A stretch of DNA of 64,000 bases from Prolixibacteraceae bacterium (GCA_030602265.1 JAUWAB010000012.1:5923-69922), one strand, 5' to 3'. Positions 21,372 through 59,883 are shown, counted from the stretch's first letter. A program made the numbers and translations. Notes: generated by a model from the letters alone, not told the origin.

Positions 21372-22025
21372 TTAATTAAGATTTGAGGTTATCCAGCCAC
21401 CACCCTGCCAACCCTCCCCCGGCCTATCGGGGAGATCAGCTGTTCCCACAGTCGGGCCATTGAAATACACGCCGGCTGACGGCAAAATATCTCAAAAACC
21501 TTCTAACTTCGCACCGGGCTTCATACGAAGCCTTCGCCTCCCCGGGCCGGGAACAAAATCGCAGCGTGAACCCCGGGGAGGCTCTTACACGAACTTATTC
21601 TTTCCAATAAATACCAGATTTCTCATCATATTTCAGTTCAGGGGTCATCCATTGTTAACCGGGGGTTACCAGTTTTTCAACAGTATAATTCTACAAGGAT
21701 AATAAATATTTTGTTTATGTGCAATACTCAGGTGCTCCAGGGGTCAACTTTTTTTATAAAGCTTATAATAAACTGAATAACAGGTGTTTAAATAGTTAAT
21801 CTTCAACCAGCATGAGTCTTCTACCTATCACCGGATTTCCTTTCGCCGTCGTTCTGCCGGAATGTACCTAAACCCGAATATTCACCTTCAAAGTACAGGC
21901 CTGCTGCCAGAACAAACCAGATTCTCTACCCTGATTATCGCCGGAAGGATCCCATGTGGTCAGATCTAAGGTATTAACTGTGGACCAATCCAAGGACAGG
22001 GTCTGATGCACCCCCAGCCAATTTC

Positions 22026-22052
22026 CTACCCATCTGTAATCCCTCCGGGATT
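22026..22052. repeat. 27-mer shared with 5144-5170.
   Basis: CTACCCATCTGTAATCCCTCCGGGATT here versus CTACCTATCTGTAATCCCTCCGGGATT at 5144-5170, which is 26 of 27 identical in the same orientation. Confidence 0.6.
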
Positions 22053-22141
22053 GACCGGATAAAAGTAACGTACTCCCCTACCCTTCAATAACGACCTGGA
22101 GAAAGTTTAATAACAAAAATTTTTAATTTTGTCCGGCTGTC

Positions 22142-25100
22142 CTACTCTTCAATTACGACCCTGAACCCGACATTAAATACCTTCTGATAATCCCGGTAAG
22201 GCAACCGGAAACTGGACGTCGCCCTGTACGGCCTGTCGTACCATGAACCTCCCCTGACTACCCGTTTCCCGATTTGGGTAACATCGTTACGCCCGTCATC
22301 TTCATTGTAGGGATAAGGCCTGTAGGCAGTCCGGGTCCACTCCCAGACATTCCCATGCATATCGTTCAGGTCAAAATAATTGGCCCTGTAGCGACCAACA
22401 CTTTCCGAAACAAAACCGCCATCATTGAAGAGTGTATCCCGCGGGATCCAGTCATCGTAAGGCCCCGGATTATCAATAATCCTGGTACTTTCATAGTTTT
22501 TATGGGCTGTACAGGCTGCATACTCTGCAAGCCTTTTGTCGCCCAGGTTGGCAAAAACTGAATAATCAGCTCCGAAATTTCCGAAAGAGTATGGGGTGTC
22601 CCTGCCGGCACGACAAGCCCATTCCCATTGCCCCTCAGTTGGAAGAGTAAACTTCCTTCCTGTCTTCTCACTCAGCCATTTACAGAAGTCCATGGCCTCC
22701 TTCCACGATATGCGTACTACCGGCTGATCGGGATGGTTCAACGGATAACCCTTTCTGCCAAACTGGTACCCATGCCGGTGTTCAACCCTTGAATCGTGTT
22801 CCGGATCGAACAGTGCATAAATCCGGTTGGTAATCTCAAACCGGCCCATCCAGAAAGCATCCACTTGTTGTTCGGTCCGTGGCATTTCATCCGGATGATC
22901 TGTACTCCCCATAAGGAAAGTTCCTCCGGGAATTTTTACCATATCAATGGAAACACCATCAGCAAGCGGGATGGAAACCTGATACTGTCCAAGGCCGATC
23001 TGCCTGTTCTCGATGACATTCCGATCCACCGGCCAGCCCGGTATGGCATCGACTCCCTTATTTAATGACCGTTTTTCCGGCATCTGCGGAACAATTCCTT
23101 CAGGGATTTCAGGCAAATCCTCGAGATCCGGTTCAATTACGTTAAACATTTCTGCATAGATCTTCCGCAGCCTTCGCGACTCTTCTGTTCTGTGATAGGT
23201 GCTGATATCCGATCTCCGGCCATGGAAGGGCGCATTCATATCAATCCAGCAGGCCAGTTTTTCGATTTCCTCCGGATGAAGTTGCACATTGTGATGGCCC
23301 TTGTTCAGCATCTGCATCAGCTCAGTCTGGTCGGCGTGGACATCCATGGGAACCAGCATATCCATGTCGCTCTCGATCCCGGGCCGGCGCACATACCGGT
23401 GCAGGTTGGCATAGGATACTGAGAAATTGCCGCCATACGAAGGATCAGCACGGCCGCTGATCTGGGATTTCCAGTCGGTAATCCGGGCAGTACCCACCAG
23501 GTTAATTAAATCCGGCCGCGTCGTATTATGGCATGAAACACAGGCCCTGTCCAGGATGGGCTGAACTTCATGGGCAAAACTGAAGCCCCTTGCCTTCCCG
23601 AACCACTCTTTGATTTCCTGCGGCTTTTTGCGGGCAGCCATACTCGGCCTGGGCGGCGGGACCCGGTACTTGTCCTCGTGGCAGCCAATACAGGAGAGGT
23701 TCTCACCCGGCATGGCCGTGAACCACGACCGCATCACCTGCAGAGCTTTCCCTTCGGAATCCAGAGGCTGGACGGCGATGGGTGTATTGGCAGGTACGAT
23801 AAACATGGCTGAGCCGTCAGTCTCGACATCGACGGTTCCAAGAATACGCTTTATATCCCACGGACCATCCATGCCTATGGTCCCAAGCAGTCCGCCCTGC
23901 CCCCAGGGACTGAAGCCGTAAGAAATTATCCGAAGCTTTTTGACTTCACCTCTTGGAATTCCTTTCAGGCCCCCGCCCTCATAAACATCCTGCATAAATA
24001 CGGATGCCTTATCGCTTGCCAGGTTTACCCTGTCGGGGATAACCGGAGGCGTGGGAACAGCTTCGGCCAGGATGGGTGCGATAAATGCACTGCCCTCACT
24101 TTCTGTGATCAGCGACATATTTCCATAAATATCCACCAGGTAGAGCCCCCATAAGGAAGTCGGGGTGGCTTTCACAGATACAATAAAATATTTTTCACTC
24201 AGCGGAAGGGGCTCCAGAAAATGGGGCCATACGCCGTCAGGCAGCCTGTCGCGCTCCAGCGGGACCACCTTCTTTCCGTAATGCGGAATTTCCGTTACCA
24301 CACCCTCTGCCTCTTTCCTCCCTAACACCGGGTCGATTACCAGCATGCGACCGCTGCGGGAAATGCTGTGGTGACCTCCGGCAATGCCCACAATGGCGGT
24401 ATTGTGGCCCGGAATAGGCCGGGCATTGAAAAAAGCCGCCGGAAAATAGGAGTTTGAACCGTAATAGGCTTGCTGGGTCGTTCCGTCGGGATTCATGCTG
24501 AAGAGTATCCTTGAGTTGGAATGGGGAAGATCTGCGTACTCCCAACGTTGATACAAAATCTGACCATTATTCATCACCACCGGGCCCCAGTTGCTGTCCT
24601 GGTCGAAGGTGAGCTGCCGGGTCTGACCTGTTTTCGGATTGTACAGGAATATGCCCGACATTTTGTTGCCTCCGTCGGTGCAGGGCAGTCCCATAAAAGT
24701 AGCGGTCGAACAAAATATGATCCGGTCGTCGGGTGTATAACAGGCATCGAAACTGTCAAAATCCTCATACGCCGGCGGAGTGATCTGCCTGATCAGGCGG
24801 GTGGCCATTTCCATTTCAAAAATATGCCACCTTCCGTTGGTTCCAATGGACGAAAACAGCATTCTGGTGCCACTGAAATGCATTTCCGGATCGGTAATGA
24901 TCATCCCTTTTTTGGGCCTGAACAAGGTCGAAACTGTCTGTTTGTCATTACTCAGGGTGAGTTTGATAAACTCATTATCCCAGTGAGTGGACGGATTTCC
25001 GATTTCAGAATTGTTCTGAAAATTGGAAGGTGCCAGTCCCAGGTTACCGCCCATTACAGACCTGGCGTTCTGACCAAAGTTGCGTTTGATCGCTATGATC

Positions 25101-25432
25101 GGTTTTCCCTGAATGAGCGGGTTCTTCAGAAGCTGTGCATCGAGCAGTTTTAAAAGCTCTGTTGCCTCTTTTACTGCTGTCTGGTCATTATTTTTAATAC
25201 CAGCAAGCAGATCAGGCTTCAGCTCCTTCATCCGCTGAAGGGCAGCCAAAGCCGGTTCCCCGGCCTTAAACTGATCCGGAAAACTCTTCTCCAGATCGTC
25301 TAATGCCATCCTGTACTGAACAGGATTAAAGGCACTTACTCTGTTTATCAGGTCTTTATTGGTACTCCCTGAAGAGGTTTCAAATGAAAACAAGACCGCA
25401 CACCACGCCAGGCAAACAATAGTCTTCTTCAT
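22142..25432 (-). CDS. Large exported protein: helical N-domain, beta-propeller-like region, two CxxCH haem-c motifs and a C-terminal FGE/SUMF1-like domain lacking the catalytic Cys pair.
   Basis: 1096-aa ORF with a signal peptide (CLAWCAVLFSF). The haem motifs are LSCIGCHEDKY and RACVSCHNTTR. The FGE-fold motifs are FWMGRFEITN, VVRISWKEAMDFCKWL, LPTEGQWEWACRAG, DMHGNVWEWT and VVRGGSWYDRPYRATSSFRLPY. The last has no Cys where true FGE has CxxxxC. Confidence 0.85.
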   Translation of the reverse strand: MKKTIVCLAWCAVLFSFETSSGSTNKDLINRVSAFNPVQYRMALDDLEKSFPDQFKAGEPALAALQRMKELKPDLLAGIKNNDQTAVKEATELLKLLDAQLLKNPLIQGKPIIAIKRNFGQNARSVMGGNLGLAPSNFQNNSEIGNPSTHWDNEFIKLTLSNDKQTVSTLFRPKKGMIITDPEMHFSGTRMLFSSIGTNGRWHIFEMEMATRLIRQITPPAYEDFDSFDACYTPDDRIIFCSTATFMGLPCTDGGNKMSGIFLYNPKTGQTRQLTFDQDSNWGPVVMNNGQILYQRWEYADLPHSNSRILFSMNPDGTTQQAYYGSNSYFPAAFFNARPIPGHNTAIVGIAGGHHSISRSGRMLVIDPVLGRKEAEGVVTEIPHYGKKVVPLERDRLPDGVWPHFLEPLPLSEKYFIVSVKATPTSLWGLYLVDIYGNMSLITESEGSAFIAPILAEAVPTPPVIPDRVNLASDKASVFMQDVYEGGGLKGIPRGEVKKLRIISYGFSPWGQGGLLGTIGMDGPWDIKRILGTVDVETDGSAMFIVPANTPIAVQPLDSEGKALQVMRSWFTAMPGENLSCIGCHEDKYRVPPPRPSMAARKKPQEIKEWFGKARGFSFAHEVQPILDRACVSCHNTTRPDLINLVGTARITDWKSQISGRADPSYGGNFSVSYANLHRYVRRPGIESDMDMLVPMDVHADQTELMQMLNKGHHNVQLHPEEIEKLACWIDMNAPFHGRRSDISTYHRTEESRRLRKIYAEMFNVIEPDLEDLPEIPEGIVPQMPEKRSLNKGVDAIPGWPVDRNVIENRQIGLGQYQVSIPLADGVSIDMVKIPGGTFLMGSTDHPDEMPRTEQQVDAFWMGRFEITNRIYALFDPEHDSRVEHRHGYQFGRKGYPLNHPDQPVVRISWKEAMDFCKWLSEKTGRKFTLPTEGQWEWACRAGRDTPYSFGNFGADYSVFANLGDKRLAEYAACTAHKNYESTRIIDNPGPYDDWIPRDTLFNDGGFVSESVGRYRANYFDLNDMHGNVWEWTRTAYRPYPYNEDDGRNDVTQIGKRVVRGGSWYDRPYRATSSFRLPYRDYQKVFNVGFRVVIEE

Positions 25433-25481
25433 AGTCTGTTCAATATTTGGTTAAGCTTGGAATTATTAAAAACAGCCGCTT

Positions 25482-28400
25482 TTATTCATCAATGATTATC
25501 CTGAAACCCACATTATAAACCTTCTGCCAGGGCAGATAGGATTTCCTGAAATAGGAGGTAGCCGTTTTGGGCGGATCAATCCATGAGCCTCCCCTGGCCA
25601 CTTTCTTGCCGCCTCCTGTCTGGTTCGTTTCTCTGGTAGGGTAAGGCAGATAATCACATCGTGTCCACTCCGATACGTTGCCATGCATATCGTAAAGTCC
25701 CCAGCGATTGGGCTTATAGAAACCCGGGGCCACGGTCAGCATGTTGCCATCATCAAAACGTTCATCCTTGGGATGCCAGGTAAAATAGGCATACCACGGA
25801 TTATTAGTCGCCATCGGTTGCGGATCCACCCCCGTCACCGCCATCTTGTTCATCTGGGAGTCGGACATATTTTCGTATGCCGAAAAGTCGGTATCGAAAC
25901 CGCCATACCAGAAAGGGGTATTGGTACCGGCCCTGCATGCCCATTCCCATTGCCTTTCCGTGGGCAGGTTTACGGGAAGTCCGGTTTTTTCGCTTAATTT
26001 TTTACAGAACTCCATGGCTTCATTCCAGGATACCCTGATAACAGGCTGTCCGGGCAAATTGGCCGGATACCCTTCATTGACATGGTCTTTCCATTGCTGA
26101 TCATGAAACCGGCTGTCGTGTCCAGGGAATAGTATCCTGAACTGTTCATTGGTGATTTCCGTTTCAGACATCCAGAAAGCCTTGTCTATTCTGACGACAT
26201 GTTCCGGAGAATAATCGGAGGGCGTTGTGTTGCTGCCCATTACAAACTCACCGGCCGGAATCCGCACAAAGTTCAGCTTAATGCCCGGAGCCATCTCCAC
26301 TACCTTTTTTGTATTTCCCCCGGGAACCATTGATTTTGCGGTTTTTTCAGTGAATGGAAAACCTTTCAGACGAACCCTTTCGAATTTTGGAGTAACCACT
26401 TTCGGCTTAACCGGTTCAGGCTTTGGCTGGCTGTTGAGGTATTGGGCATATGCCAGTATTTCGGCCCTCCAGTCGACCCCCATTCCGTTGGCATACTTAT
26501 TCGTCAGTTCAATTCTCCGGGAATACTGATCGAAGCCATTATAGGGTTCGGCAACAAAACTGCCGTGGTAGGGCGCGTTCAGGTCGATCCAGGTGTACAG
26601 TGTTTTCCACTCTTCGCTGGTCAGCTCTACGCCATGGTGCCCTCTTTGGAGCATTTGTACCAGTGGACTGGTTGAAACATGGTATTCATACGGATAAAGT
26701 ACTTTCATTCCGGCTTCCGGCCCCTGCCGGTGTATATATGGGTGCAGATCGAGATAACTCTTGCTGTATCTGCGGTTGCCCGGGACTTTCTCGTCAATGC
26801 GGCCTCCCAGGTAATTCCGGGTAAGCGGACCATTGTGGCAGGCAATGCAGGCCCTGTCGAGAATGGGCTGAATTTCCAGTTCAAAGGTGAAAGGCCTGAC
26901 ACCCCCTTTGGCCATCTCCAGTTTCCGGGCAGGTTTTCGCGAGGCCATGGCCATAACAGGCCGGGGAATCTGGTTCTGGTCTTCGTGGCATCCGACACAC
27001 GACACCACCTCCCCGGGCATTCCGGTCAGCCAGCTGCGCATCCATTGAATGGCCCTGCCATCCGAATCGAGGGGCTGTAAGGAAATGGGCGTATTGGCAG
27101 GTATGGTAAACATGGCCGAACCATCTTCTTCTACCGGAACTTCGCCTAATAAGCGCTTGATGTCCCAACCGCTCTGAATTCCCTGTGCAAGATGGTCGGA
27201 TACCGACCGGTTATAAGCATATTCATAGGCAAATACCCGTAAAGACTTTACTGTTCCTTTCGGCACTCCGGGTAATCCTTCGCCTTCATAGATATCCTGA
27301 ATAAATACGGTGGCATCTTTCTTAGTCAGGTTCACTTTCTCAGGAATTACCGGAGGTACCGGCTTCTTCCGGATAGGTATTCCGTGAATAAATCCTTCGC
27401 CTTCCTGTTCTTTGATCAGGGTAAGATTGTCGAATACATCGACCAGATACAGGCCCCACAGACCTTCAGGACTTAATTTGGCCGTTACCAGGAAGTACTT
27501 GTCGTTTATCGGGTAAGGTTTGATAAACTGCGGATAAACTCCGTCCACCATATGATCCTTCACTATGGGTATGATCGGCCGTTTGCTGAAAGGCATTTCC
27601 TGAACCATCCCCCGCTCTTCCTTCCGGTCCATGGCAGGATCGAAAAGGATCAGCCGTCCACTCCTCACGACTCCGTGGTGACCCGAAATGATGCCAACGA
27701 ACCGGGTAGGATGGTTGGGAATGGGCTGGACATCCATTATGCTGGTCGGAAAAACCGATCCGCTTCCATACAGCGACCGCTGCTCGGTCCCATCGGGATT
27801 CATATGCATGACAATCCTCGAAAAGTAATGGGTCAGGTCGGTATATTCCCACCGGACATACATAATCCTGCCGTTGTTCATCACAACCGGATGCCAGTTG
27901 GCGTCCTGGTCGAAGGTCAGCCGGCGGAGATCACCGTCCTCAGGATTATACAGCACCATATTCCCGACCGCATCACTGCCGTTCACACAGGGCACTGCCT
28001 GATAACCGATATTGGATACGGCAATCACCTTGTTGTTGGGCAGATAACAGGCATCCACAAACTCGAGGTCCGGTTCGTCAGTTTGAATTACTTTGCGCAG
28101 GCCTTCGCCATTTAAACCCACCTCGAAAACCTGCCATTTTTTGCTGTCATCGACTTTCGAAAACATAAGTCTCTCGGCGTCCCAATGCAGTTTCAGGTCC
28201 GGGACTGAAGAACCATTGGCAGGTTTAAAAATGGTACGGTATTGTAAATCACCCTGCAGATTGGAGATTTCGGCGATTTCGGCATTAAAGCCAGTACGCC
28301 GCGCCGACAACTGATTCGACCAGTTATTGGGCTGGGTTCCCAGTGCCGAAGGATTATCCACTCTGGCGGTGGCACCCATATCATACCGGCCTACCAGAAT

Positions 28401-29090
28401 CCTGTCAAATGCCAGTTGGGAGTTCGACAGCAATATCTCGCGTTTAAGCTGCAATGCTCTCCCGGCGGCAGCTATGGACGCCGGATTGTTTTCATAAATA
28501 CCTTTAAATCCCTGCCTGACAAGGCCCCTGAGTTCTTCAAGCTTAGGATTTATCTTCTCCGGAACAAAATCCGGAGCGGTTTTCATGTCATTCACTGCAG
28601 CCATAATGGATGCGAGATTCAACCACTCCAGCTGCACCCCCAGCTGTTGGATATGATGAGCCGTCAGAAGTAAATTCAGCAGTCCGGCAATTCTCTTCCC
28701 GCTATCGGTTTCAGATTTTACTTCCTTAATTCTTTGACTGAACCAGCCGGATGCCGGGAATCCCTTGCAAATTTCGGTCACCACGGCCTCTTCGAAAGAA
28801 CCATCCGCGGAAGAAAGAAACTTTTTCCAGCCTGAACCGATATACGGCATGGCTATACTCATTTCAGCAGGAAAATCGAGTTGCAGTTTTTTCATCGCCT
28901 GATCCAGCTCAGCTGATTCAGAAGTTATTGTGCCCTGCTTCAGCCCTGCATCGATTTTTTTCTTAGCTGACAATACCGCCTCGATCCACGATTGGGAGGA
29001 GGCGGATGGTTGTTTCGCCGATGTTTTCTTTATTGAAATAAAACTTAAGCTACAGAAAACGACAATAAGAAAAACTACAACTCTCTTCAT
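25482..29090 (-). CDS. Paralogue of 22142-25432: exported beta-propeller-like / 2x CxxCH / Cys-less FGE-like protein.
   Basis: The ATG at 29090 gives MKRVVVFLIVVFCSLSFISI (signal). The track start at 29129 is a TTG. It is collinear with its neighbour, for example FDQDANWHPVVMNNGRIMYVRWEYTDLTH versus FDQDSNWGPVVMNNGQILYQRWEYADLPH. Other motifs are VSCVGCHEDQN, RACIACHNG, and the C-terminus VARGGSWIDPPKTATSYFRKSY...VGFRIIIDE. Confidence 0.85.
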   Translation of the reverse strand: MKRVVVFLIVVFCSLSFISIKKTSAKQPSASSQSWIEAVLSAKKKIDAGLKQGTITSESAELDQAMKKLQLDFPAEMSIAMPYIGSGWKKFLSSADGSFEEAVVTEICKGFPASGWFSQRIKEVKSETDSGKRIAGLLNLLLTAHHIQQLGVQLEWLNLASIMAAVNDMKTAPDFVPEKINPKLEELRGLVRQGFKGIYENNPASIAAAGRALQLKREILLSNSQLAFDRILVGRYDMGATARVDNPSALGTQPNNWSNQLSARRTGFNAEIAEISNLQGDLQYRTIFKPANGSSVPDLKLHWDAERLMFSKVDDSKKWQVFEVGLNGEGLRKVIQTDEPDLEFVDACYLPNNKVIAVSNIGYQAVPCVNGSDAVGNMVLYNPEDGDLRRLTFDQDANWHPVVMNNGRIMYVRWEYTDLTHYFSRIVMHMNPDGTEQRSLYGSGSVFPTSIMDVQPIPNHPTRFVGIISGHHGVVRSGRLILFDPAMDRKEERGMVQEMPFSKRPIIPIVKDHMVDGVYPQFIKPYPINDKYFLVTAKLSPEGLWGLYLVDVFDNLTLIKEQEGEGFIHGIPIRKKPVPPVIPEKVNLTKKDATVFIQDIYEGEGLPGVPKGTVKSLRVFAYEYAYNRSVSDHLAQGIQSGWDIKRLLGEVPVEEDGSAMFTIPANTPISLQPLDSDGRAIQWMRSWLTGMPGEVVSCVGCHEDQNQIPRPVMAMASRKPARKLEMAKGGVRPFTFELEIQPILDRACIACHNGPLTRNYLGGRIDEKVPGNRRYSKSYLDLHPYIHRQGPEAGMKVLYPYEYHVSTSPLVQMLQRGHHGVELTSEEWKTLYTWIDLNAPYHGSFVAEPYNGFDQYSRRIELTNKYANGMGVDWRAEILAYAQYLNSQPKPEPVKPKVVTPKFERVRLKGFPFTEKTAKSMVPGGNTKKVVEMAPGIKLNFVRIPAGEFVMGSNTTPSDYSPEHVVRIDKAFWMSETEITNEQFRILFPGHDSRFHDQQWKDHVNEGYPANLPGQPVIRVSWNEAMEFCKKLSEKTGLPVNLPTERQWEWACRAGTNTPFWYGGFDTDFSAYENMSDSQMNKMAVTGVDPQPMATNNPWYAYFTWHPKDERFDDGNMLTVAPGFYKPNRWGLYDMHGNVSEWTRCDYLPYPTRETNQTGGGKKVARGGSWIDPPKTATSYFRKSYLPWQKVYNVGFRIIIDE

Positions 29091-29129
29091 TCCGACTGAT
29101 TGTTTATAACCACTCAAGATGGTTTTCAA

Positions 29130-30002
29130 TTAATTTTTCAATTCCTGAAATAATTCAAAAGCCTGATCGACAGAATAATTCTTGTGCACAACGGCACTAA
29201 CCGCCTGGATCATGGCCACCGGGTCGTCTGACTGGAAAACGTTGCGGCCCATGTCGACTCCGGCAGCGCCATCGTTAATAGCCATATAGCAAAGCTCGAG
29301 GGCCTCTTTCTCGGGGAGCTTTTTTCCGCCGGCGATAACAATGGGTACCGGACAGGCAGCCACTACATTTTCAAAACCCTCACAATAGTAAGTTTTTACA
29401 ATGTTGGCCCCATTTTCGGCACAAACCCTCGATGCCAGTCCGAAATAGCGGGCATCGCGGGCCATATCCTTACCCACGGCGGTAACCCCCATCACCGGAA
29501 TGCCATACTTTGCCCCCAGGTCGGCCAGTCTGAACAGGTTGGCCACCGTTTTGGCCTCCATTGCCGGATCGCCGATAGCCAGCATAATGGCCATGGCAGA
29601 AACGTTAAAGCGAATGGCATCTTCAATGTCAATTAAAACATTGTCGTTCAATTCGGTAAGAATGGTAGTTCCCGCGTCTGAACGAAGACAAATGGGTTTA
29701 TTGATATTCGCAGGTACAGAGGTTTGCAATATACCACGGGCACACATAAGGCAATCGGCATACTCCATCAGGGGAACAATGTTCAGGTCAATTCTTTCGA
29801 GACCCGAGGTGGGGCCCATAATAAAACCATGATCGAAGGCTAACATCACGGTTCTGGAGGTTTCCGGATTAAAAATGCGCGTCAGGCGGTCTTTCGCCCC
29901 CCAGGTCAGATTATCGGCGCCTTTTACATGGAACGACTGGTTTTTCACCGCCACACCGGTACCAAATTTTTTTCCTTCTCTGATATCATCTAAATCAGCC
30001 AT
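29130..30002 (-). CDS. LsrF/DhnA-type class I aldolase (3-hydroxy-5-phosphonooxypentane-2,4-dione thiolase-like).
   Basis: 290-aa ORF starting [13 protein letters not shown]. The motifs [43 protein letters not shown] and [17 protein letters not shown] closely follow my recollection of E. coli LsrF. Confidence 0.85.
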
Positions 30003-30062
30003 AATGATTTCTTTATTGATTATTTGAAATTTTTAAGCATCACCGGGAATCCCGGAATATGA

Positions 30063-30683
30063 TTATCCGGCCAGCGCCTCGTGGAAAGCCGAGAACATGC
30101 ATGCCCACGACATGGCACCTGCATCAGCCGTGCCAATGGAACGATCACCATAATTGCGGGCACGCCCGAAATTGGCTTTCATCTCTTTGGTAGCCAAAGC
30201 CCCTTCCCGGGCAGCCTCTGCCGCCGCATTAAAAAGTTCGCATATGTCGTTGGATCCCCGGGCGGCCATGGCTTCAACAGCAGGAATAAGCGCATCCATC
30301 ATGGTTTTATCACCTTTGCCCGCTTTGGTCTGTTTTTGAATACCCTCCAGGCCTCCCCGGAACATCTTGACCACCTGCGGCCCATCCAGCTCACTGCCAT
30401 CCGCGTGATCGCTCATGCCCAGCAGGAAGGCACCAAACAAGGTGCTGGTTGATCCGCCGGTATGCATCATGACGTTGAATCCCATTTCACTGAGCAAGAC
30501 TTTGTACTCAGTAGCATTTCCGGCCATATCGACCGACGAAGTCAATGCCTGCACTATAGCAGTGCCATGGTCTCCATCTCCGGTAACCGCATCCAGTCGG
30601 GAAAATTCATCGGCCCTTTCGGTCACCCGGTCAAGAGCACATTTCCACATGGATATAAAATCCTGAACAGAAAGTTTCTGCAT
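30063..30683 (-). CDS. dhaL: Dihydroxyacetone kinase, ADP-binding subunit DhaL.
   Basis: 206-aa ORF. The motif LDAVTGDGDHGTAI (Asp triad for Mg-nucleotide) and an all-helical composition support the call. It is adjacent to a DhaK gene. Confidence 0.88.
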   Translation of the reverse strand: MQKLSVQDFISMWKCALDRVTERADEFSRLDAVTGDGDHGTAIVQALTSSVDMAGNATEYKVLLSEMGFNVMMHTGGSTSTLFGAFLLGMSDHADGSELDGPQVVKMFRGGLEGIQKQTKAGKGDKTMMDALIPAVEAMAARGSNDICELFNAAAEAAREGALATKEMKANFGRARNYGDRSIGTADAGAMSWACMFSAFHEALAG

Positions 30684-30718
30684 CTTAATATTGACTAAAT
30701 AAATGGTCAGATAAGCTC

Positions 30719-31732
30719 TTAAACGGTTGTCCAGTAAGGAGCATCTGCTTTCCGGTTCTTCAGTAATTCAACATGATCGTCATCCAGTTTTGCAAGTATC
30801 ATCTGGAAGCCTGCCATTTCCTGAACGGTCAGCAGCTCCCCGATTTTGGCGTGAACCACCTCTACTCCATCCTTTGCCAGAACCTGATGAGCCCTCCGGA
30901 AAATGATGCTCAGCTCCATCAATGTAGTTGACCCCACTCCGTTGACATAAAGCAATACCTTATCGCCAGTTTTCGGCTGAATCTTTTCGCAAAGCTGGCC
31001 AATCATGATTTCTGCGGTTTTATCGGCCGACTCTAACATTTGTCTTCCACCGCCGCCTTCGCCGTGCTGGCCCATACCAATCTCCATCTCCCCGACAGCG
31101 AGTTCCGAAATGGTAGCACCATTCTGCGGATGGGTGCATGATCCCATAGCTACTGCGAGGGTGGCCACCTGCTGGTTGAAACGCTCACCGATTTCATAAA
31201 TCTCGTCGAGACTTTTTCCCTCTTCGGCAGCAGCGCCGATAATTTTATAAAGCGGTATGCACCCAGCCAGTCCACGGCAGTCTTCCTCCGGGGTATCAAT
31301 TCCGGCACTGATATCGTCGTGCGTAAGAATCTTTTTTACCTTAATACCTGCCCTCTCAGCCAATTGCATGGCCATATTGGCACTCATGACATCGCCCGAA
31401 TGGTTGAGGACGACCAGCAAGATGCCCGCATCACGCCTGAACAGCTGTAAGGCCTGGAAGAGGCGCTGCGCACCGGGAGCAGCAAAAATATCGCCAACTA
31501 CAGAGCAGTCTAACATACCCTCGCCGACAAAACCGCTTAACGCAGGCTCGTGACCCGATCCGCCCAATGTAACAATCGCTACTTTCGACGGGTCTTTCGG
31601 CACGGCCCTTACCACAATATTTTCAGCTGCCAAAGCTACTTTATCACTGTAGGCCAACACATAGCCGTCCAATAATTCACGGGTGATATTTTCAGGTTCG
31701 TTGATAAACTTGGTCATTATTTTTGTATTCAT
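30719..31732 (-). CDS. dhaK: Dihydroxyacetone (ketose) kinase, substrate-binding subunit DhaK.
   Basis: 337-aa ORF with KFINEPENITRELLDG, TLGGSGHEPA and VLNHSGDVMS. The alternative ATG at 31717 may be the true start. Confidence 0.88.
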   Translation of the reverse strand: MNTKIMTKFINEPENITRELLDGYVLAYSDKVALAAENIVVRAVPKDPSKVAIVTLGGSGHEPALSGFVGEGMLDCSVVGDIFAAPGAQRLFQALQLFRRDAGILLVVLNHSGDVMSANMAMQLAERAGIKVKKILTHDDISAGIDTPEEDCRGLAGCIPLYKIIGAAAEEGKSLDEIYEIGERFNQQVATLAVAMGSCTHPQNGATISELAVGEMEIGMGQHGEGGGGRQMLESADKTAEIMIGQLCEKIQPKTGDKVLLYVNGVGSTTLMELSIIFRRAHQVLAKDGVEVVHAKIGELLTVQEMAGFQMILAKLDDDHVELLKNRKADAPYWTTV

Positions 31733-31755
31733 TTCCTTGGTTTTTTTTGATTATT

Positions 31756-32076
31756 CTACTCCTTATCGAAACACATCAGTTCTACCGGGATGCCTTCTTC
31801 CTCAATAAAGGCAATGGTAAGGTTTTCCCCTGCACGCATGGGTTCAACGATTACTTTGGTACCCTGCAAGGCCACCTCCATATCAGGCACTTCATAGGCA
31901 ATATGGGCTACCGTTTGCACAAGTTCCGGCATACACGATCCCTCTTCAAAGCGAAGAAATTCAATCTTGTTGGGACTTTTCGAATAATCGGTCAGGTGAA
32001 CTTTCAGGCCTTCGGCATAAAATTCATTTTCCTGTTCTGTTGTGGTTGGAATACCAAAATGGTTTACTTTTCTCAT
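31756..32076 (-). CDS. Small VOC/glyoxalase-fold protein (tentative).
   Basis: 106-aa ORF. The N-terminal VNHFGIPT and the later AHIAYEV...E pattern resemble metal ligands of single-domain VOC proteins. The motif support is weak. Confidence 0.5.
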   Translation of the reverse strand: MRKVNHFGIPTTTEQENEFYAEGLKVHLTDYSKSPNKIEFLRFEEGSCMPELVQTVAHIAYEVPDMEVALQGTKVIVEPMRAGENLTIAFIEEEGIPVELMCFDKE

Positions 32077-32116
32077 ATCAGTCGATTGTTAAATGGTTTT
32101 TTGTTAAAATCACTCT

Positions 32117-32806
32117 TTATTCAGATTTGGAAAGCACATCAATAAACTCCACATTCGGATTGGTAAAACGCAGGCCGTTGCCATCGTGGAAAGAGGCAAA
32201 TTCAGTGACAATCACGCCTTCGGGACCGGCAAACAAAAAGTGTGGGGACTCAATTTCGGCCAGATGGATGACTTCATCGACCATTTGCTTCTTAAAGTGA
32301 GAGACGGTGATATGATCCTTCTGACTTTCGGGCAGCTTCGGGCCGTTGGGCGTTGCTTCGCCAATGGAGTAATTATAGGTCCACCCGTGGCGGACCTGCC
32401 AGCTTTCGAATTTGGCCGGATACTCAGTTGCCACATGCCTGTGCTCCACAATCATTTGTCCGGGCAGCAAATAAATCTCGTGCCCGAAGTAGTTATGGAC
32501 AGGATCGTTCACCCAGAAAAGGCCGGCCATACCCACATTTTCAAAATCCCCCAGGTTAAAATCGGTAATCCAGAGATTCTCCTTTACAAAATCGGAATAC
32601 GGCACCCCGTAGTGATCAAGCATATCGAGATAGGCTTTAAGGGCGATTTCAGGATCCAGTTTACCATCTTTGTAAAAATCGGCATTGGTGTACTTCTTCT
32701 GGTAAGGTGCTTTTTCTTTCATAACCGGCTCATTTTTAACTTCAACGGAACATCCCATGATTGTTGCTGTCAATAAAAGGATGAATGTGTAATTGATTAA
32801 TCTCAT
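32117..32806 (-). CDS. Lipoprotein with a cupin domain resembling D-lyxose/D-mannose-family sugar isomerases.
   Basis: The ATG at 32806 gives MRLINYTFILLLTATIMGC (lipobox). The cupin core is PGQMIVEHRHVATEYPAKFESWQVRHG. The C-terminus GVIVTEFASFHDGNGLRFTNPNVEF resembles the EFS...D..F.DP ending I recall for YdaE-type lyxose isomerases. Confidence 0.55.
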   Translation of the reverse strand: MRLINYTFILLLTATIMGCSVEVKNEPVMKEKAPYQKKYTNADFYKDGKLDPEIALKAYLDMLDHYGVPYSDFVKENLWITDFNLGDFENVGMAGLFWVNDPVHNYFGHEIYLLPGQMIVEHRHVATEYPAKFESWQVRHGWTYNYSIGEATPNGPKLPESQKDHITVSHFKKQMVDEVIHLAEIESPHFLFAGPEGVIVTEFASFHDGNGLRFTNPNVEFIDVLSKSE

Positions 32807-32837
32807 AATGTTGATATTTTTTATGTTTGATTTTTTT

Positions 32838-33989
32838 TCAGTCAGACCAAAGCTTAACCCTTGCCATGCCCTCGATTTCAACCAGCAGTTCCTCCCTGCA
32901 TATATCCGCTTTCAGGTAAACGGCAGGCACTCCCGGATAGATCTCCTCAACAATTCTCTTGCATGGCTCAAAAAACGACACCTCTTTCAGATATATCCGG
33001 AGAGATGAAATTTCAGCTTTCGTAAATTTCTTAGCCCCTGAGCCGGCTAATGTTTCCAAAGAGATCAGATGTTCAATATTCTCCAGGGTAATCCTGGTCT
33101 GCTCTTCAATTCCCTGGTTGATATAGCTGGTTTCACCACGGATCGCTGCTGTACCCGACACATAAATGGTTCCTTCGCCTCCCCTCAAAATCATCTTCCC
33201 TCTTTCAAACTTGGGCGTCGTTACGCCACTGCACTTTTCATCATCCGGTGCTATAAGTACTGCTTTTGAATAGTCATGCGCAGGAACCTGCAGGGAATTG
33301 TTCAGGGCGACAATCCGGATGTCCGAACCGTTGGTGTAAACAGCGTCCAGGTCTACAATCACCCCGCCGTATTCTGTTCCTATCCCAGTTGCTGCCGGAA
33401 AGCCGTCATGCCATTCAGTATTCAGGTAAAACCGTGACCTTGCGTCGTTGAATTCCTGGTAATGCTGATGCTTTCCAGCTATCCGGGTAATTTTCTCAAT
33501 GTAATTCCATTGGCGTACGATAGACGATACGGGCATGCCCTCCAGTCTGAAAATTTCTTCCAACCCAGAGAATATCATTTCAGACTGTTTTTGGATGCAA
33601 TCCTCCTCTTCGTCACCCGAAGCACCACCAACAAAAAGGACTTTCACACCACCCGTCTGGACAATAATGTATGGAAGGTCATCTTTCTGTTTGTAGAAAA
33701 TCTGCGTTCCTATTTCCGTTTCCAGCTCGGTAACTTCCATGGCCAGCTGAAACCTTTCTACGGGAGGTTGCGCAACGTAAGTAAAGACAGGTGGCCTTCC
33801 TTCAAAATAGCTGCTCAGTTTCTGGCTGGCAAGCCTGCGTTGATCATGGAATTCCTGTCGGTTTTCCGGATTTCCGAAAAGGACCAGCCTGATGGTGTTA
33901 CCTTTTGGAGTGTAATGGGATAATAAATTATCCAATTGCTCCCCGAAAGTATTCCCCTGGCCAGTTTTATAATAAATATTAATCTGCAT
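32838..33989 (-). CDS. RidA/YjgF-fold protein, FkbO/Hyg5/XanB2 chorismatase-like (tentative).
   Basis: 383-aa ORF. The C-terminal IYVSGTAAIRGETSYINQGIEEQTRITLENIEHLI...SLRIYLK matches the YjgF-like signature of chorismatase-family enzymes as I remember it. Confidence 0.5.
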   Translation of the reverse strand: MQINIYYKTGQGNTFGEQLDNLLSHYTPKGNTIRLVLFGNPENRQEFHDQRRLASQKLSSYFEGRPPVFTYVAQPPVERFQLAMEVTELETEIGTQIFYKQKDDLPYIIVQTGGVKVLFVGGASGDEEEDCIQKQSEMIFSGLEEIFRLEGMPVSSIVRQWNYIEKITRIAGKHQHYQEFNDARSRFYLNTEWHDGFPAATGIGTEYGGVIVDLDAVYTNGSDIRIVALNNSLQVPAHDYSKAVLIAPDDEKCSGVTTPKFERGKMILRGGEGTIYVSGTAAIRGETSYINQGIEEQTRITLENIEHLISLETLAGSGAKKFTKAEISSLRIYLKEVSFFEPCKRIVEEIYPGVPAVYLKADICREELLVEIEGMARVKLWSD

Positions 33990-33996
33990 CAGTTAT

Positions 33997-35772
33997 CTAT
34001 AATGAATTTACGTATTCAACCAATTCTTTAATTTCTGTGTCCGACACCTCCTTGTTGATGCCATGCCGGTGAACGGCAAAAACATCCTCTAAAGTTGCAG
34101 CCCTGCCGTCGAAAAGGTAAGGTGCGGTACGCCACACTTCGACCAGTGACGGAGTATCCCAGCCATTCTCAAACTCAATGTCGTCGCCGATCCGGTGCAT
34201 CTGCATATCGGTAAAATAGGGTCCCGAATGGCAATACCCGCAATTCAGCCTTTCAAAAACCTTCTTTCCGCGTTCCGCCTTTTCCGACAAATTCCCATTG
34301 ACCAGAAACGGACTCGGAACCGGCCGCAAAGACATCAGGTATTCATCCACACATAGCGCAAGGTCTTCAGGAATTTCGGCAAACTGAATATGGGTAAATC
34401 CGCGTCTAACGGCTATTTCGGCTTTTTCACGAATGCCCGATATCATTGAAGGCGGCGTTACATGGCTGTACAACAAACTCTTGCAATTCTTCGGATTTCC
34501 AATGCCGTCGTTCATTAAATCCCAGTTCATGCCATCGGTGCGGGCATCGCCGGGATGGCAGCCATTACAGGATTGCCAGTTCTGAAAGCAGAAAGATGCG
34601 TCATTGAAGATTTTCTCCCCTTTATGGACCCTTGATTCGATTCTGTTCTCAACCATTGCTATGGTCTCAATCCGGTGATCCGCGAGATTTACGATGTTGA
34701 GCGTATCAGAAAAATAGGTGGGTATAATGGCGTTTTCACCCGAAATGACAAAATTCCGGGGACCATTTCCTACCAGTGGAACCCGTGTGCGGATACCGAA
34801 CATAAAGCCCAGATCGTAATCCAGGGAATGGGGATCGGGATGGTTTTGGAATTTTTCAAGAAATGCCGGATAGTCGATCACACTGATTTCATGTGTTCCT
34901 GAATGCGTGATCACAATTTTATCGGATGTGCAATTCACGCCCCAGATGCCTGCAGCCCCCCGTTCCGGTTCATCCAGCAGGACGGTACCCGCTTTTTCAA
35001 GGGTTTCAACGTCAATTATGCTCATGGCACTGGTATTCATCCAACCTTGCTGAAGCTGGTTGGTAGGCACCTGGAAACGGCCCAGGTTATGCGTAACAAA
35101 AACATACTTCCCGTCGGGACTCAAACACATGCCCCGCAAGGCATTACTCCCGTTGGAGAGCATAATATCTTTCACTTTGGTAAAGCCATCGAGTTCAATT
35201 ACCGAAACACAAGCGGCAACGGTATCTAGATCAGCGCGCCCAGAAGGAAGAAAATTGGCCACAAACAGATACTTGCCGTCAGCAACGGCACATCGGGGCT
35301 CCCGCAGAACTTCGGCGGATGCAACGATTTGCCTGCTTTTAAGGTCAATCCGGATGACCGTATTCAGAAACTGGTTCAGCACGAAAAGGGACTGGCCGTC
35401 AGGTGATACCACCGGTGACGTGGCTCCGGACCCAGCGGCCAGGACGGTTTCCACCTCACCGCTCTTCAGGTTCAGAAAATGAACCTTTCCGGAAGAGCCG
35501 AAGGTAGTAATGAATGCGAAATCACCAAGCGTGGCCAGGCCTGTCGGAGCCTCATCGAAAATCCAGACTTTAATGGGCTGACCGAAACCCTGTGCATAAA
35601 GAGCAACCGAATGGCTTCCCTTGTTCGCCATCAAAAATCCATAACCTGAAGCCACCTTGATATCTGCTGGAAATTCAGGCGCGGTCTTTATATCCGTCTG
35701 CTGATCAGAAAATCCGAAAACCAACACAAGAACAGCTATGGTAAAGAATCCGATTATTGCCTTGTAACTCAT
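33997..35772 (-). CDS. Beta-propeller (YVTN/lactonase-like) fused to a di-haem cytochrome c peroxidase/MauG-like domain.
   Basis: It has an N-terminal signal/anchor and repeated strand-rich units (GQSLFVLN, GKYLFVANF, GKYVFVTHN). The two haem sites are CNGCHPGDARTDGMNWDL and CGYCHSGPYFTD, with C-terminal WRTAPYLFDG typical of CCP/MauG. Confidence 0.8.
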   Translation of the reverse strand: MSYKAIIGFFTIAVLVLVFGFSDQQTDIKTAPEFPADIKVASGYGFLMANKGSHSVALYAQGFGQPIKVWIFDEAPTGLATLGDFAFITTFGSSGKVHFLNLKSGEVETVLAAGSGATSPVVSPDGQSLFVLNQFLNTVIRIDLKSRQIVASAEVLREPRCAVADGKYLFVANFLPSGRADLDTVAACVSVIELDGFTKVKDIMLSNGSNALRGMCLSPDGKYVFVTHNLGRFQVPTNQLQQGWMNTSAMSIIDVETLEKAGTVLLDEPERGAAGIWGVNCTSDKIVITHSGTHEISVIDYPAFLEKFQNHPDPHSLDYDLGFMFGIRTRVPLVGNGPRNFVISGENAIIPTYFSDTLNIVNLADHRIETIAMVENRIESRVHKGEKIFNDASFCFQNWQSCNGCHPGDARTDGMNWDLMNDGIGNPKNCKSLLYSHVTPPSMISGIREKAEIAVRRGFTHIQFAEIPEDLALCVDEYLMSLRPVPSPFLVNGNLSEKAERGKKVFERLNCGYCHSGPYFTDMQMHRIGDDIEFENGWDTPSLVEVWRTAPYLFDGRAATLEDVFAVHRHGINKEVSDTEIKELVEYVNSL

Positions 35773-35804
35773 AAAATCATTGTTTTAGATTTGATTCGAA
35801 CGCA

Positions 35805-36584
35805 TCAGCTGTTCCCGTTATGATAACCCAATTCAAAATTAATACTGTGTGTGAACTTCTGGATAGTGGCTGCATGTTGCTCAATAATATTATCAGGCAA
35901 CCTGTCTTTGGGACCCGAAAGCCAGATGGCACCGCAGGGGGCATTGCTGTAATTGAAAATAGGAGCGCCTACACAAATTACCCCGTGTAATTCCTCCTCA
36001 CGGTCAACGGCATACCCAAGTTCGCGAACCTTTTCCAACTCTTTCAGGTAGGCTGCCTCATTCTGAATGGTATTGGCATTGTAAATTTGGTAATTCATTT
36101 TCTGAAGATAGGAATTGCGCAAAACCTCAGGCATAAATGCCATCAACGCCTTTCCGGGGGCCGAACAGTGCAAATCGAACAGCTTTCCTGGTGTGAGGAC
36201 GAAGCAGAAGGCATGGGTACCCAAAACCTGTTCAATGAAGATTCCTTTCTCCTCACCCATAACCCCTAAAAAGACCGATTCTTTTACCTCATCGCGTAAT
36301 TCACGCATCTTGGGCAGCACCACCTCGAGAAGGCTCTGCTCCTGAATGGCCTGAAAACCCAGGGAAAGCATCTTTCTGGAGAGCTTGTACTTTTTGGAAG
36401 CATCATTGTAAAGCAGGTACCCGTGCCTTACCAGGGTATGCAGAATTCGATAAACCGTTGTTTGTGAAACATTTACTTCGGCCTTGATATCGTTCAGCGT
36501 CATAGCCTTGTTGCTGTTCGCTAACAATTCCAGGATTAAAATGCCTTTCTCCAGGTTGGGAACCTTGTAATTTGATTCATTCAT
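35805..36584 (-). CDS. IclR-family transcriptional regulator.
   Basis: 259-aa ORF. The wHTH is LNDIKAEVNVSQTTVYRILHTLVRHGYL, followed by a C-terminal effector-binding domain of IclR size. Confidence 0.88.
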   Translation of the reverse strand: MNESNYKVPNLEKGILILELLANSNKAMTLNDIKAEVNVSQTTVYRILHTLVRHGYLLYNDASKKYKLSRKMLSLGFQAIQEQSLLEVVLPKMRELRDEVKESVFLGVMGEEKGIFIEQVLGTHAFCFVLTPGKLFDLHCSAPGKALMAFMPEVLRNSYLQKMNYQIYNANTIQNEAAYLKELEKVRELGYAVDREEELHGVICVGAPIFNYSNAPCGAIWLSGPKDRLPDNIIEQHAATIQKFTHSINFELGYHNGNS

Positions 36585-36630
36585 TTACCAGGATATTTTC
36601 CATATATGAAATATCTTTTCAAATATGAAC

Positions 36631-36638
36631 CAAATATA
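36631..36638 (-). promoter_or_regulatory. Candidate Bacteroidota -7 box (TAnnTTTG) for the IclR-headed operon.
   Basis: The minus strand reads TATATTTG, 47 nt upstream of the ATG at 36584. A direct repeat of ATATGAA lies at 36604-36610 and 36623-36629 between the box and the start. Confidence 0.35.
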
Positions 36639-59856: not shown

Positions 59857-59883
59857 AATATCCGGGAAATAAACAATACTGAC

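Follow-up and report, generated by a model that had tools for sequence, protein, structure and literature searches.

As far as is known, hydrazine synthase (HZS), which is built of alpha, beta and gamma subunits, is peculiar to anammox bacteria. The LsrF protein of Escherichia coli, by its database annotation, acts in the degradation of autoinducer 2 (AI-2), where it converts 3-hydroxy-2,4-pentanedione 5-phosphate and coenzyme A (CoA) into dihydroxyacetone phosphate (DHAP) and acetyl-CoA via a Schiff base on Lys203. In Scalindua, the beta and gamma subunits of HZS are fused (PMC10732223), and metagenome-assembled genomes (MAGs) of Phycisphaerae and KSB1 contain non-anammox hzsA-like genes together with fused hzsBC-like genes (Suarez et al. 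2023, PMC10732223). The authors of that study propose that such genes may belong to a wider hzs-like family with other substrates, which is the nearest published statement to the case described here, namely a gene cluster at positions 22142-36584 of a 64,000-nt stretch of DNA from a Prolixibacteraceae bacterium (GCA_030602265.1, JAUWAB010000012.1:5923-69922; hereafter the window). In this cluster, homologues of all three HZS subunits (alpha, beta and gamma) are encoded in one operon that also contains an LsrF orthologue, a DhaK/DhaL-type kinase and a lipoprotein of a sugar isomerase family. We tentatively propose, with a confidence slightly short of even, that these genes form a single IclR-controlled operon for a two-compartment pathway acting on a small carbohydrate-derived compound, while our confidence in any particular substrate is much lower. 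An earlier note made from the sequence of the window announced eleven genes in its title, a miscount, since the list of open reading frames (ORFs) contains ten co-directional minus-strand genes, in agreement with the genes which that note itself enumerated. In order of transcription, these genes are:

35805..36584, minus strand, IclR-family transcriptional regulator, first gene (PF09339 and PF01614)
33997..35772, minus strand, exported fusion of a beta-propeller with a di-haem domain of the cytochrome c peroxidase (CCP)/MauG type, 591 aa
32838..33989, minus strand, cytoplasmic FkbO/Hyg5-like protein with a RidA domain, 383 aa (PF21168, PF01042)
32117..32806, minus strand, cupin lipoprotein of the D-lyxose/D-mannose isomerase family, 229 aa
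31756..32076, minus strand, small cytoplasmic protein of the vicinal oxygen chelate (VOC) fold according to its predicted structure, 106 aa
30719..31732, minus strand, DhaK-type substrate-binding kinase subunit (PF02733)
30063..30683, minus strand, DhaL-type nucleotide-binding kinase subunit (PF02734)
29130..30002, minus strand, LsrF orthologue, 3-hydroxy-5-phosphonooxypentane-2,4-dione thiolase type (NF006081)
25482..29090, minus strand, giant 2, exported HZS-alpha-like di-haem protein with a C-terminal domain resembling formylglycine-generating enzyme (FGE), 1202 aa (PF18582, PF03781)
22142..25432, minus strand, giant 1, divergent second alpha-like paralogue, 1096 aa (PF18582, PF03781)

Apart from the count, the description in the earlier note proved sound, although it did not recognise the homology to the three HZS subunits, the two partner genes that relatives have and the window lacks, or the ability of the two modules to occur apart. 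Its gene order, common strand and gaps of 7-60 nt are reproduced by the ORF list and by measurement of the nine intergenic gaps (32, 7, 31, 40, 23, 35, 60, 39 and 49 nt from IclR to giant 1), and comparisons with Pfam, NCBIfam, PDB profiles and Foldseek returned the same family for every gene. The translations also agree with its count of four products with export signals and five that look cytoplasmic: both giants, the fusion and the cupin carry an N-terminal signal or lipoprotein sequence, and five further products and the IclR regulator have none, a distribution that fits the two-compartment logic it had suggested. Three of the four exported products carry two predicted c-type haem sites each.

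The strongest argument for treating these genes as a functional unit is their conservation. A scan of species-representative genomes seeded on the giant yielded at least 576 loci, the best 80 of which were examined; these include Bacteroides, Parabacteroides, Rikenella, Alistipes, Odoribacter, Prevotella, Paraprevotella and Phocaeicola, as well as Mediterranea, Massilibacteroides, Dysgonomonas, Millionella, Prolixibacteraceae and others. A naive ORF caller gives spurious antisense ORFs in high-GC loci (clusters c12 and c20) and, therefore, gene presence was counted by tblastn in the 42 loci whose flanks reach at least 8 kb to either side of the giant (fully flanked loci), to which the counts below refer. 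The fusion is present in 34 of the 42 loci, the cupin in 31, the FkbO-like gene in 27 and IclR in 22, while VOC, DhaK, DhaL and LsrF occur in 27 loci each, always all four together and always with the fusion. Moreover, this cytoplasmic block is found in two permuted orders in about a dozen Bacteroidales genera, among them the eleven listed above from Bacteroides to Dysgonomonas. The first order, that of the window, is (IclR)-fusion-FkbO-cupin-VOC-DhaK-DhaL-LsrF-(Mal s 1-like)-giant-...-CcsBA, and the second is (IclR or HTCS)-fusion-FkbO-cupin-giant-CcsBA-VOC-DhaK-DhaL-LsrF-Mal s 1-like, where HTCS denotes a hybrid two-component system regulator. The maintenance of the same set of genes through rearrangement is good evidence for a functional link between them. 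The earlier note had made its operon claim depend on co-localisation being conserved in other genomes, and the haem genes and the VOC-DhaK-DhaL-LsrF block do stand together in 27/42 loci and in both orders.

The same gene set thus recurs in dozens of genomes, an arrangement far beyond chance. A chance juxtaposition of unrelated transcription units could appeal to the fact that the modules can occur apart, but it is practically excluded by their linkage in 27/42 loci, in two gene orders and across Bacteroidales families, and by the fact that LsrF next to a giant without the fusion was never seen. Nevertheless, the system is modular: a periplasmic core consists of the fusion and the giant, usually with the cupin, and the cytoplasmic four-gene block usually joins it. 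Eight of the 42 loci contain a giant with neither the fusion nor the cytoplasmic block, and these partnerless giants nest among operon-type giants in a neighbour-joining tree. The FkbO-like and Mal s 1-like genes behave as variable accessories, the exported Mal s 1-like beta-propeller being present in 22/42 loci. In addition, the operon of the closest relatives of the window encodes an equivalog of rhamnulose-1-phosphate aldolase (RhaD), and nine Bacteroides loci contain a gene resembling 3-deoxy-D-arabino-heptulosonate 7-phosphate (DAHP) synthase. CcsBA, Mal s 1-like and DAHP-synthase-like genes were not found anywhere in the 64-kb window. A complete operon with proteins 57-79% identical to those of the window also appears in a MAG labelled Opitutales (L074, JAVBMG010000010.1) and assigned to Verrucomicrobiota; its presence there is due either to horizontal transfer or to a binning error.

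The giants are the members of the set that most clearly recall HZS. Both contain the middle domain of HZS alpha (PF18582) and a C-terminal FGE-sulfatase domain (PF03781) according to Pfam, share 40% identity and carry two CxxCH motifs each, 50 residues apart (CVGCHEDQN and CIACHNG in giant 2, CIGCHEDKY and CVSCHNT in giant 1). When the profile of the giants without the FGE part was compared with the PDB, the sole match was HZS alpha (5c2v_A, E=3e-12). An AlphaFold model of giant 1, of moderate confidence (pLDDT 67), likewise has 5c2v_A as its top Foldseek match (E=3.7e-20, 844 columns, TM(target) 0.55), in an alignment that spans essentially the whole 768-residue HZS alpha chain at 15% identity, and the runner-up, TolB (4e-11), is nine orders of magnitude weaker. 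Within the limits set by the pLDDT of 67, the Foldseek alignment, PF18582 and the CxxCH motifs together display the architecture of the alpha subunit, with a propeller, a middle c-haem domain and a C-terminal c-haem domain. Four residues after the first CxxCH, nearly all giants have Asn (C[VI]GCHE[DN]QN) and giant 1 of the window has Tyr (residue 589); in HZS alpha, a Tyr near this motif, perhaps at an equivalent position, is the haem ligand.

The C-terminal part of giant 1 finds its best structural match by Foldseek in PvdO (5hha). FGE has two catalytic cysteines after a GGS[YW] motif, whereas the last 70 residues of the giants contain no Cys at this place (C-terminal sequence RGGSWYDRPYRATSSFRLPYRDYQKVFNVGFRVVIEE). 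A catalytic FGE was rejected for this reason and, since no Cys stands at the position of the catalytic pair, the domain probably binds or scaffolds instead of generating formylglycine. The giant family comprises more than 3600 database homologues annotated just as 'SUMF1/EgtB/PvdO family nonheme iron enzyme', many of which possess an extra NPCBM carbohydrate-binding domain. Giant 2 represents the copy kept in all related operons. In the neighbour-joining tree, giant 1 groups with the second copies of loci L008 and L046 in a clade of their own that branches deeply. In a metagenome assembly of the same organism (L005, 2883-6388), giant 2 is called at 965 aa after a 600-nt gap, owing to a 5' disruption or an assembly error.

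The fusion completes the set of HZS subunits. Pfam places a CCP_MauG-type di-haem domain behind its beta-propeller, and both HZS beta (5c2v_B, E=5.9e-16) and HZS gamma (5c2v_C, E=1e-15) rank high in its comparison with the PDB, among the best matches. Two CxxCH motifs are present in the fusion and in all 52 of its homologues; exactly two are also found in every giant. The alpha-like giant and the beta-gamma-like fusion are neighbours or near neighbours in 34/42 loci. In 22/42 loci, the operon includes a gene for CcsBA, a system II cytochrome c haem lyase in which ResB and CcsA are fused, and this argues that the CxxCH motifs of giants and fusion are used. Given the CCP_MauG domain, and since bacterial CCPs are generally known as peroxide reductases in anaerobes, the CCP-like gamma domain might reduce H2O2 for detoxification or respiration, with electrons passing via the giants and the sugar genes supplying or accompanying the process. 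We regard such a role as very unlikely, because the domain is much closer to HZS gamma than to the classical di-haem peroxidase 1iqc, which matches the fusion at E=0.0019 only, the regulators are of the IclR or HTCS type with no peroxide sensor, and the linkage of the kinase/thiolase block to the fusion (27/27) would be left unexplained.

Homology to all three HZS subunits also raises the possibility of anammox-like nitrogen chemistry, i.e., the reduction of NO or hydroxylamine or the making or breaking of N-N or N-O bonds, possibly on an amino-sugar derivative, with the RidA-type protein handling imines. The RidA domain, the GH20 hexosaminidase genes (GH, glycoside hydrolase) adjacent to the operon in the window and in Alistipes, and a gene for the cytochrome c552 nitrite reductase NrfA beside the operon in one locus would suit this idea. 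However, scores against the HZS equivalogs of NCBIfam lie far below their cut-offs (hydrazine_alpha 52 bits vs 800, hydrazine_BC 92.9 vs 1250, gamma 62 vs 625 and beta 53 vs 560), no hydrazine dehydrogenase, HAO-like or other nitrogen-cycle genes, nor a Brocadiales host, were encountered in the window or among the 80 loci examined, the hosts are Bacteroidales with a fermentative metabolism, and paralogues of the giants reside in polysaccharide utilisation loci (PULs). Nitrogen chemistry is thus judged highly improbable. The NrfA gene directly follows the operon in Parabacteroides sp. ASD2025 (L025, 20035-21501), and NrfA is also found near PUL-type giants in two other Parabacteroides (L015 and L016, at about 15.9-17.5 kb); it may simply share the CcsBA haem lyase.

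The cytoplasmic block is anchored by LsrF. The protein of the window passes the NF006081 equivalog (458 bits vs a cut-off of 297), aligns with E. coli LsrF over 290 aa at 58% identity, Lys203 and the FDHG motif included, and matches PDB entries 3gkf and 4p2v at E=1e-108 to 1e-109. The LsrF homologues encoded in the loci share 53-60% identity with the E. coli protein, and 41 of 42 conserve a KT[YF]Y motif. The earlier designation 'LsrF-like aldolase' holds as regards the family; as regards the activity, with 58% identity and the catalytic Lys, a CoA-dependent thiolase giving DHAP and acetyl-CoA is more likely than an aldolase. DhaK (PF02733, E=6e-99) has 3ct4 as its best PDB match (E=2e-65) and a G.HGE motif with the substrate-binding His in 39/39 homologues, and DhaL matches PF02734 at E=3e-38; both remain below the NCBIfam cut-offs for the dihydroxyacetone kinase subunits (TIGR02363, 297 bits vs 406; TIGR02365, 127.5 vs 138.3). 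No DhaM-type protein is encoded among the ten cluster genes or among conserved neighbours in the loci, and Bacteroidetes are not known to have a complete phosphotransferase system. DhaKL is, thus, presumably an ATP-dependent kinase for a substrate other than dihydroxyacetone.

The 106-aa protein encoded upstream of DhaK has no Pfam or NCBIfam match and no similarity to LsrG. Structure modelling, run on database homologues, gave a model of the VOC fold (pLDDT 94.9) whose top Foldseek matches are glyoxalase I and methylmalonyl-CoA epimerase (TM 0.63-0.71; 3oa4, 2qh0 and 6qh4 at 0.66-0.71). Residues H6, E39, H58 and E99 are invariant, a 2-His/2-Glu set, and the protein is, on its predicted fold, a candidate metal-dependent isomerase/epimerase of the VOC superfamily. 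Its gene is always accompanied by DhaK-DhaL-LsrF, and a search for distant contexts returned only close Bacteroidales homologues.

This module suggests a scavenging or quenching of AI-2, in the form of 4,5-dihydroxy-2,3-pentanedione (DPD), in which DhaKL would stand in for LsrK and the VOC protein for LsrG, LsrF would be retained, and the exported proteins would capture, open or convert cyclic or borated AI-2. The LsrF equivalog with its Lys203 and the self-contained nature of the VOC-DhaK-DhaL-LsrF block, which is also found alone, speak for it. As a matter of chemical reasoning, the glyceraldehyde-like and dihydroxyacetone-like ends of DPD and of hydroxypentanedione (HPD) would suit a DhaK-type kinase, and VOC enzymes move protons on dicarbonyls via enediols, a type of reaction that LsrG performs on a different scaffold. 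We nonetheless hold this explanation to be unlikely. LsrK (FGGY family), LsrG, LsrB, LsrC, LsrD and LsrR have no tblastn match in the window or in 82 related loci, where the LsrA matches are generic ABC ATPases. Moreover, AI-2 handling gives no reason for a sugar isomerase, a haem lyase and a set of four to six c-type haems, and the associations with HTCS regulators, NPCBM domains, PULs and glycoside hydrolases point to glycans.

The remaining genes of the operon bear on whether it is biosynthetic or catabolic. The FkbO-like protein has the Hyg5-type chorismatase 5ag3 (E=9e-23) and FkbO (4bps) as its best PDB matches, but it reaches just 116.5 bits against TIGR04444 (cut-off 325), so that its kinship with chorismatases is one of fold only, and the gene is dispensable in several otherwise complete operons. 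A biosynthetic role would have an aldolase of the LsrF, 2-amino-3,7-dideoxy-D-threo-hept-6-ulosonate (ADH) synthase or GriI type act with the chorismatase-like protein, and in some loci the DAHP-synthase-like protein, to build an aromatic compound, a furanone or a cofactor, while the MauG-like fusion would mature a redox cofactor in the giants. This would be in line with the FkbO/Hyg5 fold, the DAHP-synthase-like gene of the nine Bacteroides loci, weak MauG-like matches of the fusion, and additional matches of the aldolase to ADH synthase and BagB/FevI. Against it, the protein reaches 458 bits with LsrF, far above the 176 bits with ADH synthase and the 78 bits with BagB, no GriH/DHQ-synthase-II partner is found, the FkbO-like and DAHP-synthase-like genes are missing from many complete operons, and a kinase for free ketoses under IclR or HTCS control is typical of catabolism; hence, there is only a slight chance that the operon is biosynthetic. 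The IclR regulator itself falls below all NCBIfam equivalog cut-offs (best BhcR, 163 bits vs 350). It heads the cluster in its 22 loci, and in seven loci, mainly of Bacteroides, an HTCS gene lies in the flank instead of or besides IclR.

The profile of the cupin matches 7nzo (E=3.5e-19) and 2y0o (E=1.7e-14) in the PDB, and in 14 sequences E121, H122, H124, E134 and H189 are invariant and the lipobox Cys19 nearly so. It therefore has the fold and the His/His/Glu/His metal ligands (H122, H124, E134 and H189) of D-lyxose/D-mannose isomerases. A carbohydrate substrate for the system fits with the replacement of IclR by HTCS in Bacteroides, the NPCBM domain on many giants, the paralogues in SusC/SusD loci and the glycoside hydrolase genes adjacent to or inserted in the operons. 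The partnerless giant paralogues sit in SusC/SusD loci with HTCS regulators, between the SusC/SusD genes and beside GH88-like, GH2 and GH92 genes, and a gene for a xylose-isomerase-like triosephosphate isomerase (TIM)-barrel protein occurs near them. No SusC/SusD pair is found in or beside the cluster of the window, and such pairs accompany only the fusion-less paralogous giants. In six Parabacteroides/Tannerellaceae loci (L027, 19921-22830; L049, 20094-23109; and four more), the Mal s 1-like gene is followed, co-directionally and with gaps of 17-112 nt, by genes for an SSF sodium:solute symporter and a 332-aa GH130 protein of the beta-mannoside phosphorylase family. The symporter could supply the transporter absent from the core operon, and SSF, GH130 and the mannose-type isomerase together point to mannosides. 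Furthermore, a GH27 alpha-galactosidase gene is inserted between the cupin and the giant in the L074 operon.

Within the operon coordinates there is no transporter, SusC/SusD pair or glycoside hydrolase, as previously noted, but a GH20 beta-N-acetylhexosaminidase gene on the same strand (36692-38668, minus strand) precedes IclR, its end lying 107 nt away, and has its own -7 boxes upstream. Genes of family GH20 are likewise found beside the fusion-giant pair in L070 and in the Alistipes loci L081, L084 and L085. This adjacency may hint at a glycan containing N-acetylhexosamine.

From these elements, a two-compartment scheme can be drawn. In the periplasm, the alpha-like giants and the beta-gamma-like fusion would form a c-type haem redox complex, with which the lipoprotein aldose-ketose isomerase of the D-lyxose/D-mannose family would act to turn a sugar of the periplasm into a keto- or diketo-sugar, one end of which resembles dihydroxyacetone. 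As neither NAD nor ATP is present outside the cytoplasm, this task would be left to metal isomerases and haem redox proteins alone, and the periplasmic module may serve to make a keto-sugar from something that ordinary routes cannot handle. In the cytoplasm, the VOC-fold enzyme would shift a carbonyl via an enediol, which is the job of LsrG performed with another fold, and DhaK/DhaL would take over that of LsrK by phosphorylating the hydroxymethyl group next to the ketone. Finally, the LsrF-type enzyme would form a Schiff base on its conserved lysine and transfer the acyl part to CoA, releasing DHAP and acetyl-CoA from 3-hydroxy-2,4-pentanedione 5-phosphate or a close analogue.

An economical version of this scheme would start from a terminal-deoxy aldose, which would be isomerized to a 2-ketose by the cupin, oxidized at the penultimate carbon by the haem complex, phosphorylated at C1 by DhaKL and cleaved by LsrF; a 5-deoxypentose entering it would yield exactly the substrate of LsrF. 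Candidate substrates are, thus, 5-deoxypentose-, 6-deoxyhexose- or DPD-like compounds. DhaK-type kinases would be expected to bind the carbonyl as a hemiaminal on the conserved His and to phosphorylate the neighbouring hydroxymethyl group, and the natural substrate of this DhaK may be DPD, whose end resembles glyceraldehyde, or else a free 2,4-diketone that terminates in CO-CH2OH. The RhaD equivalog in the closest relatives fits with a kinase that makes (deoxy-)ketose 1-phosphates. The formation of a complex, the redox direction, the nature of the substrate and the sequence in which isomerase and kinase act are inferred. Other schemes involving 5-keto-fructose, an enzymatic 'peeling' of reducing ends or the breakdown of ascorbate are chemically possible and were not adopted, as none of the present results supports them.

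Several points weigh against this proposal. We know of no HZS-family enzyme that acts on carbohydrates, and AI-2, which to our knowledge is the only natural source of the LsrF substrate, needs no periplasmic oxidation. The core operon encodes neither an electron donor or acceptor nor a transporter, the scheme assigns no step to the FkbO/RidA-like and Mal s 1-like proteins, and the window is devoid of CcsBA and of a Mal s 1-like gene, both of which are present in most relatives. In addition, seven of the 42 loci have the fusion and the giant, with or without the cupin and the FkbO-like gene, and no kinase/thiolase block, the typical Alistipes arrangement being IclR-fusion-(FkbO)-giant, and one Alistipes contig has a stand-alone VOC-DhaK-DhaL-LsrF block beside unrelated genes. 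All functional statements made here derive from homology, predicted folds and synteny.

The transcription signals of the window are compatible with a single unit headed by IclR. Since Bacteroidetes promoters lie outside the sigma-70 scan, the -7 box TAnnTTTG was searched by script instead. Of the cluster gaps, only the one upstream of IclR contains a match, with none in the nine internal gaps (27 on the strand per 64 kb). Two candidate elements lie here:

36631..36638, minus strand, candidate Bacteroidetes-type -7 box TATATTTG, 54 nt upstream of the IclR ATG
36597..36611, minus strand, near-palindrome TTTCATATATGGAAA between the -7 box and the IclR start, a candidate IclR operator

Sigma-70 promoters (30 vs 24 expected from shuffled sequence) and intrinsic terminators (17 vs 19) give no information on transcript boundaries, and neither Rfam matches nor tRNAs were found in the whole window. 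As regards gene starts, the mechanical TTG ORF of the cupin extends to 32881, too early for a gene that starts at the ATG at 32806, and that of giant 2 likewise begins ahead of the ATG at 29090; both starts match independent gene calls on other assemblies of the same organism.

Some 770 nt after giant 1 (21372-22141) contain no convincing gene, at a position where most relatives have CcsBA, RhaD-like or DAHP-synthase-like genes, and harbour a perfect 11-nt GC-rich inverted repeat (21536-21546 and 21572-21582) with a 25-nt loop. The locus directly downstream looks like one for bacteriocin or peptide export: a 60-aa ORF (21189-21371, minus strand) with a double-glycine leader, MKTLSIETMENMYGG followed by GWW..., is succeeded by a DUF5687 protein and an ABC ATPase (19692-21119 and 18976-19695) and, further on, by a C39-peptidase ABC exporter (13773-15974, minus strand) and AhpC/TSA-like proteins. 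The rest of the window is typical of glycan use in Bacteroidota, with an HTCS regulator (699-4577, minus strand), a TonB-dependent receptor (53520-55886, plus strand) and a GH43 gene (59854-61629, plus strand), which fits the closest relatives, MAGs of the Prolixibacteraceae/Marinilabiliales type.

Several hundred species-representative genomes at least contain the gene set, including those of the cultured human gut bacteria Bacteroides clarus, B. nordii, Parabacteroides goldsteinii, P. gordonii and Rikenella microfusus, and the annotation of its members does not go beyond 'SUMF1/EgtB/PvdO family nonheme iron enzyme', 'hypothetical protein' or a generic kinase or aldolase. Extending the proposal, the HZS relatives might constitute a large family of periplasmic c-haem enzymes acting on carbohydrates in anaerobic Bacteroidales, of which this operon would be the core version, oxidizing a sugar outside the cytoplasm and feeding a DhaK/VOC/LsrF route that is a non-orthologous twin of AI-2 degradation; we consider this generalization less likely than not. 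Gut anaerobes make few cytochromes c. If true, the proposal would give hydrazine-synthase-like proteins outside anammox a function for the first time, together with a tractable host, would reveal sugar chemistry that depends on haem c in gut anaerobes, and would define a DhaK-based route to the LsrF substrate, with a bearing on the use of AI-2 or deoxy-sugar by-products by Bacteroidales devoid of the Lsr system. The generalization, for its part, would amount to a new class of carbohydrate-active redox enzyme and a new entry route into central carbon metabolism in the human gut. The cultured carriers already in existence make the model directly testable.

The earlier note could match this gene set to no known pathway, and literature searches likewise found no description of the Bacteroidales system. 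The system is built of known kinds of parts and has no described counterpart at the system level. It stands apart from HZS by its scores and context, from the Lsr system with one of eight genes present, from DhaKLM by its sub-threshold scores and the absence of DhaM, and from PULs by the absence of SusC/SusD. With HZS of Kuenenia stuttgartiensis (5C2V), it shares the co-encoding of three subunit homologues, the alpha-like chain with a propeller, a middle haem and a C-terminal haem (two CxxCH), and the di-haem CCP/MauG-type domain in the gamma-like part, and with HZS of Scalindua the fusion of beta and gamma. However, the similarity is remote (15% identity when structurally aligned, NCBIfam scores far under the cut-offs), the giants are extended by a helical or NPCBM part at the N-terminus and by the FGE-like domain at the C-terminus, almost all of them have Asn four residues after the first CxxCH, where giant 1 of the window alone has Tyr, genes for sugar enzymes separate the subunit genes, and the Bacteroidales hosts have no anammox genes nearby. 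The hzs-like genes of Phycisphaerae and KSB1 are also of the hzsA-like and fused hzsBC-like kind outside anammox, but they belong to a different phylum, are more similar to HZS, lie in a context of nitrogen-cycle genes, and have not been reported with an FGE-like domain or a sugar module.

The Lsr pathway of E. coli and Salmonella resembles the cytoplasmic part in its terminal LsrF orthologue and in the logic of kinase, isomerase and thiolase, whereas the kinase here is DhaK/DhaL instead of the FGGY-type LsrK, the isomerase candidate has the VOC fold instead of that of LsrG, and LsrR and the LsrACDB transporter are absent. As in the DhaK/DhaL/DhaM kinase, both DhaK and DhaL are present and the substrate-binding His motif is kept, albeit with NCBIfam scores under the cut-offs and no DhaM. 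The cupin differs from characterised D-lyxose/D-mannose isomerases in being a lipoprotein. The C-terminal domain of both giants shares the fold of the FGE/PvdO/PorK-GldK family (PF03781), PvdO being the closest, and unlike FGE it has no catalytic cysteine pair. Finally, known periplasmic sugar oxidations, such as that by the Gluconobacter fructose dehydrogenase with its haem c subunit, or by glucoside 3-dehydrogenase in the 3-keto-glycoside pathways, would be analogous in logic only, with an exported haem-dependent sugar redox step before uptake, and they differ in their flavin or PQQ (pyrroloquinoline quinone) dehydrogenase subunits, which have no counterpart here, in their entirely different families and in the anaerobic hosts of the present system. 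The xylose-isomerase-like TIM-barrel protein encoded beside the giant paralogues has the same fold as 3-keto-glycoside lyases.

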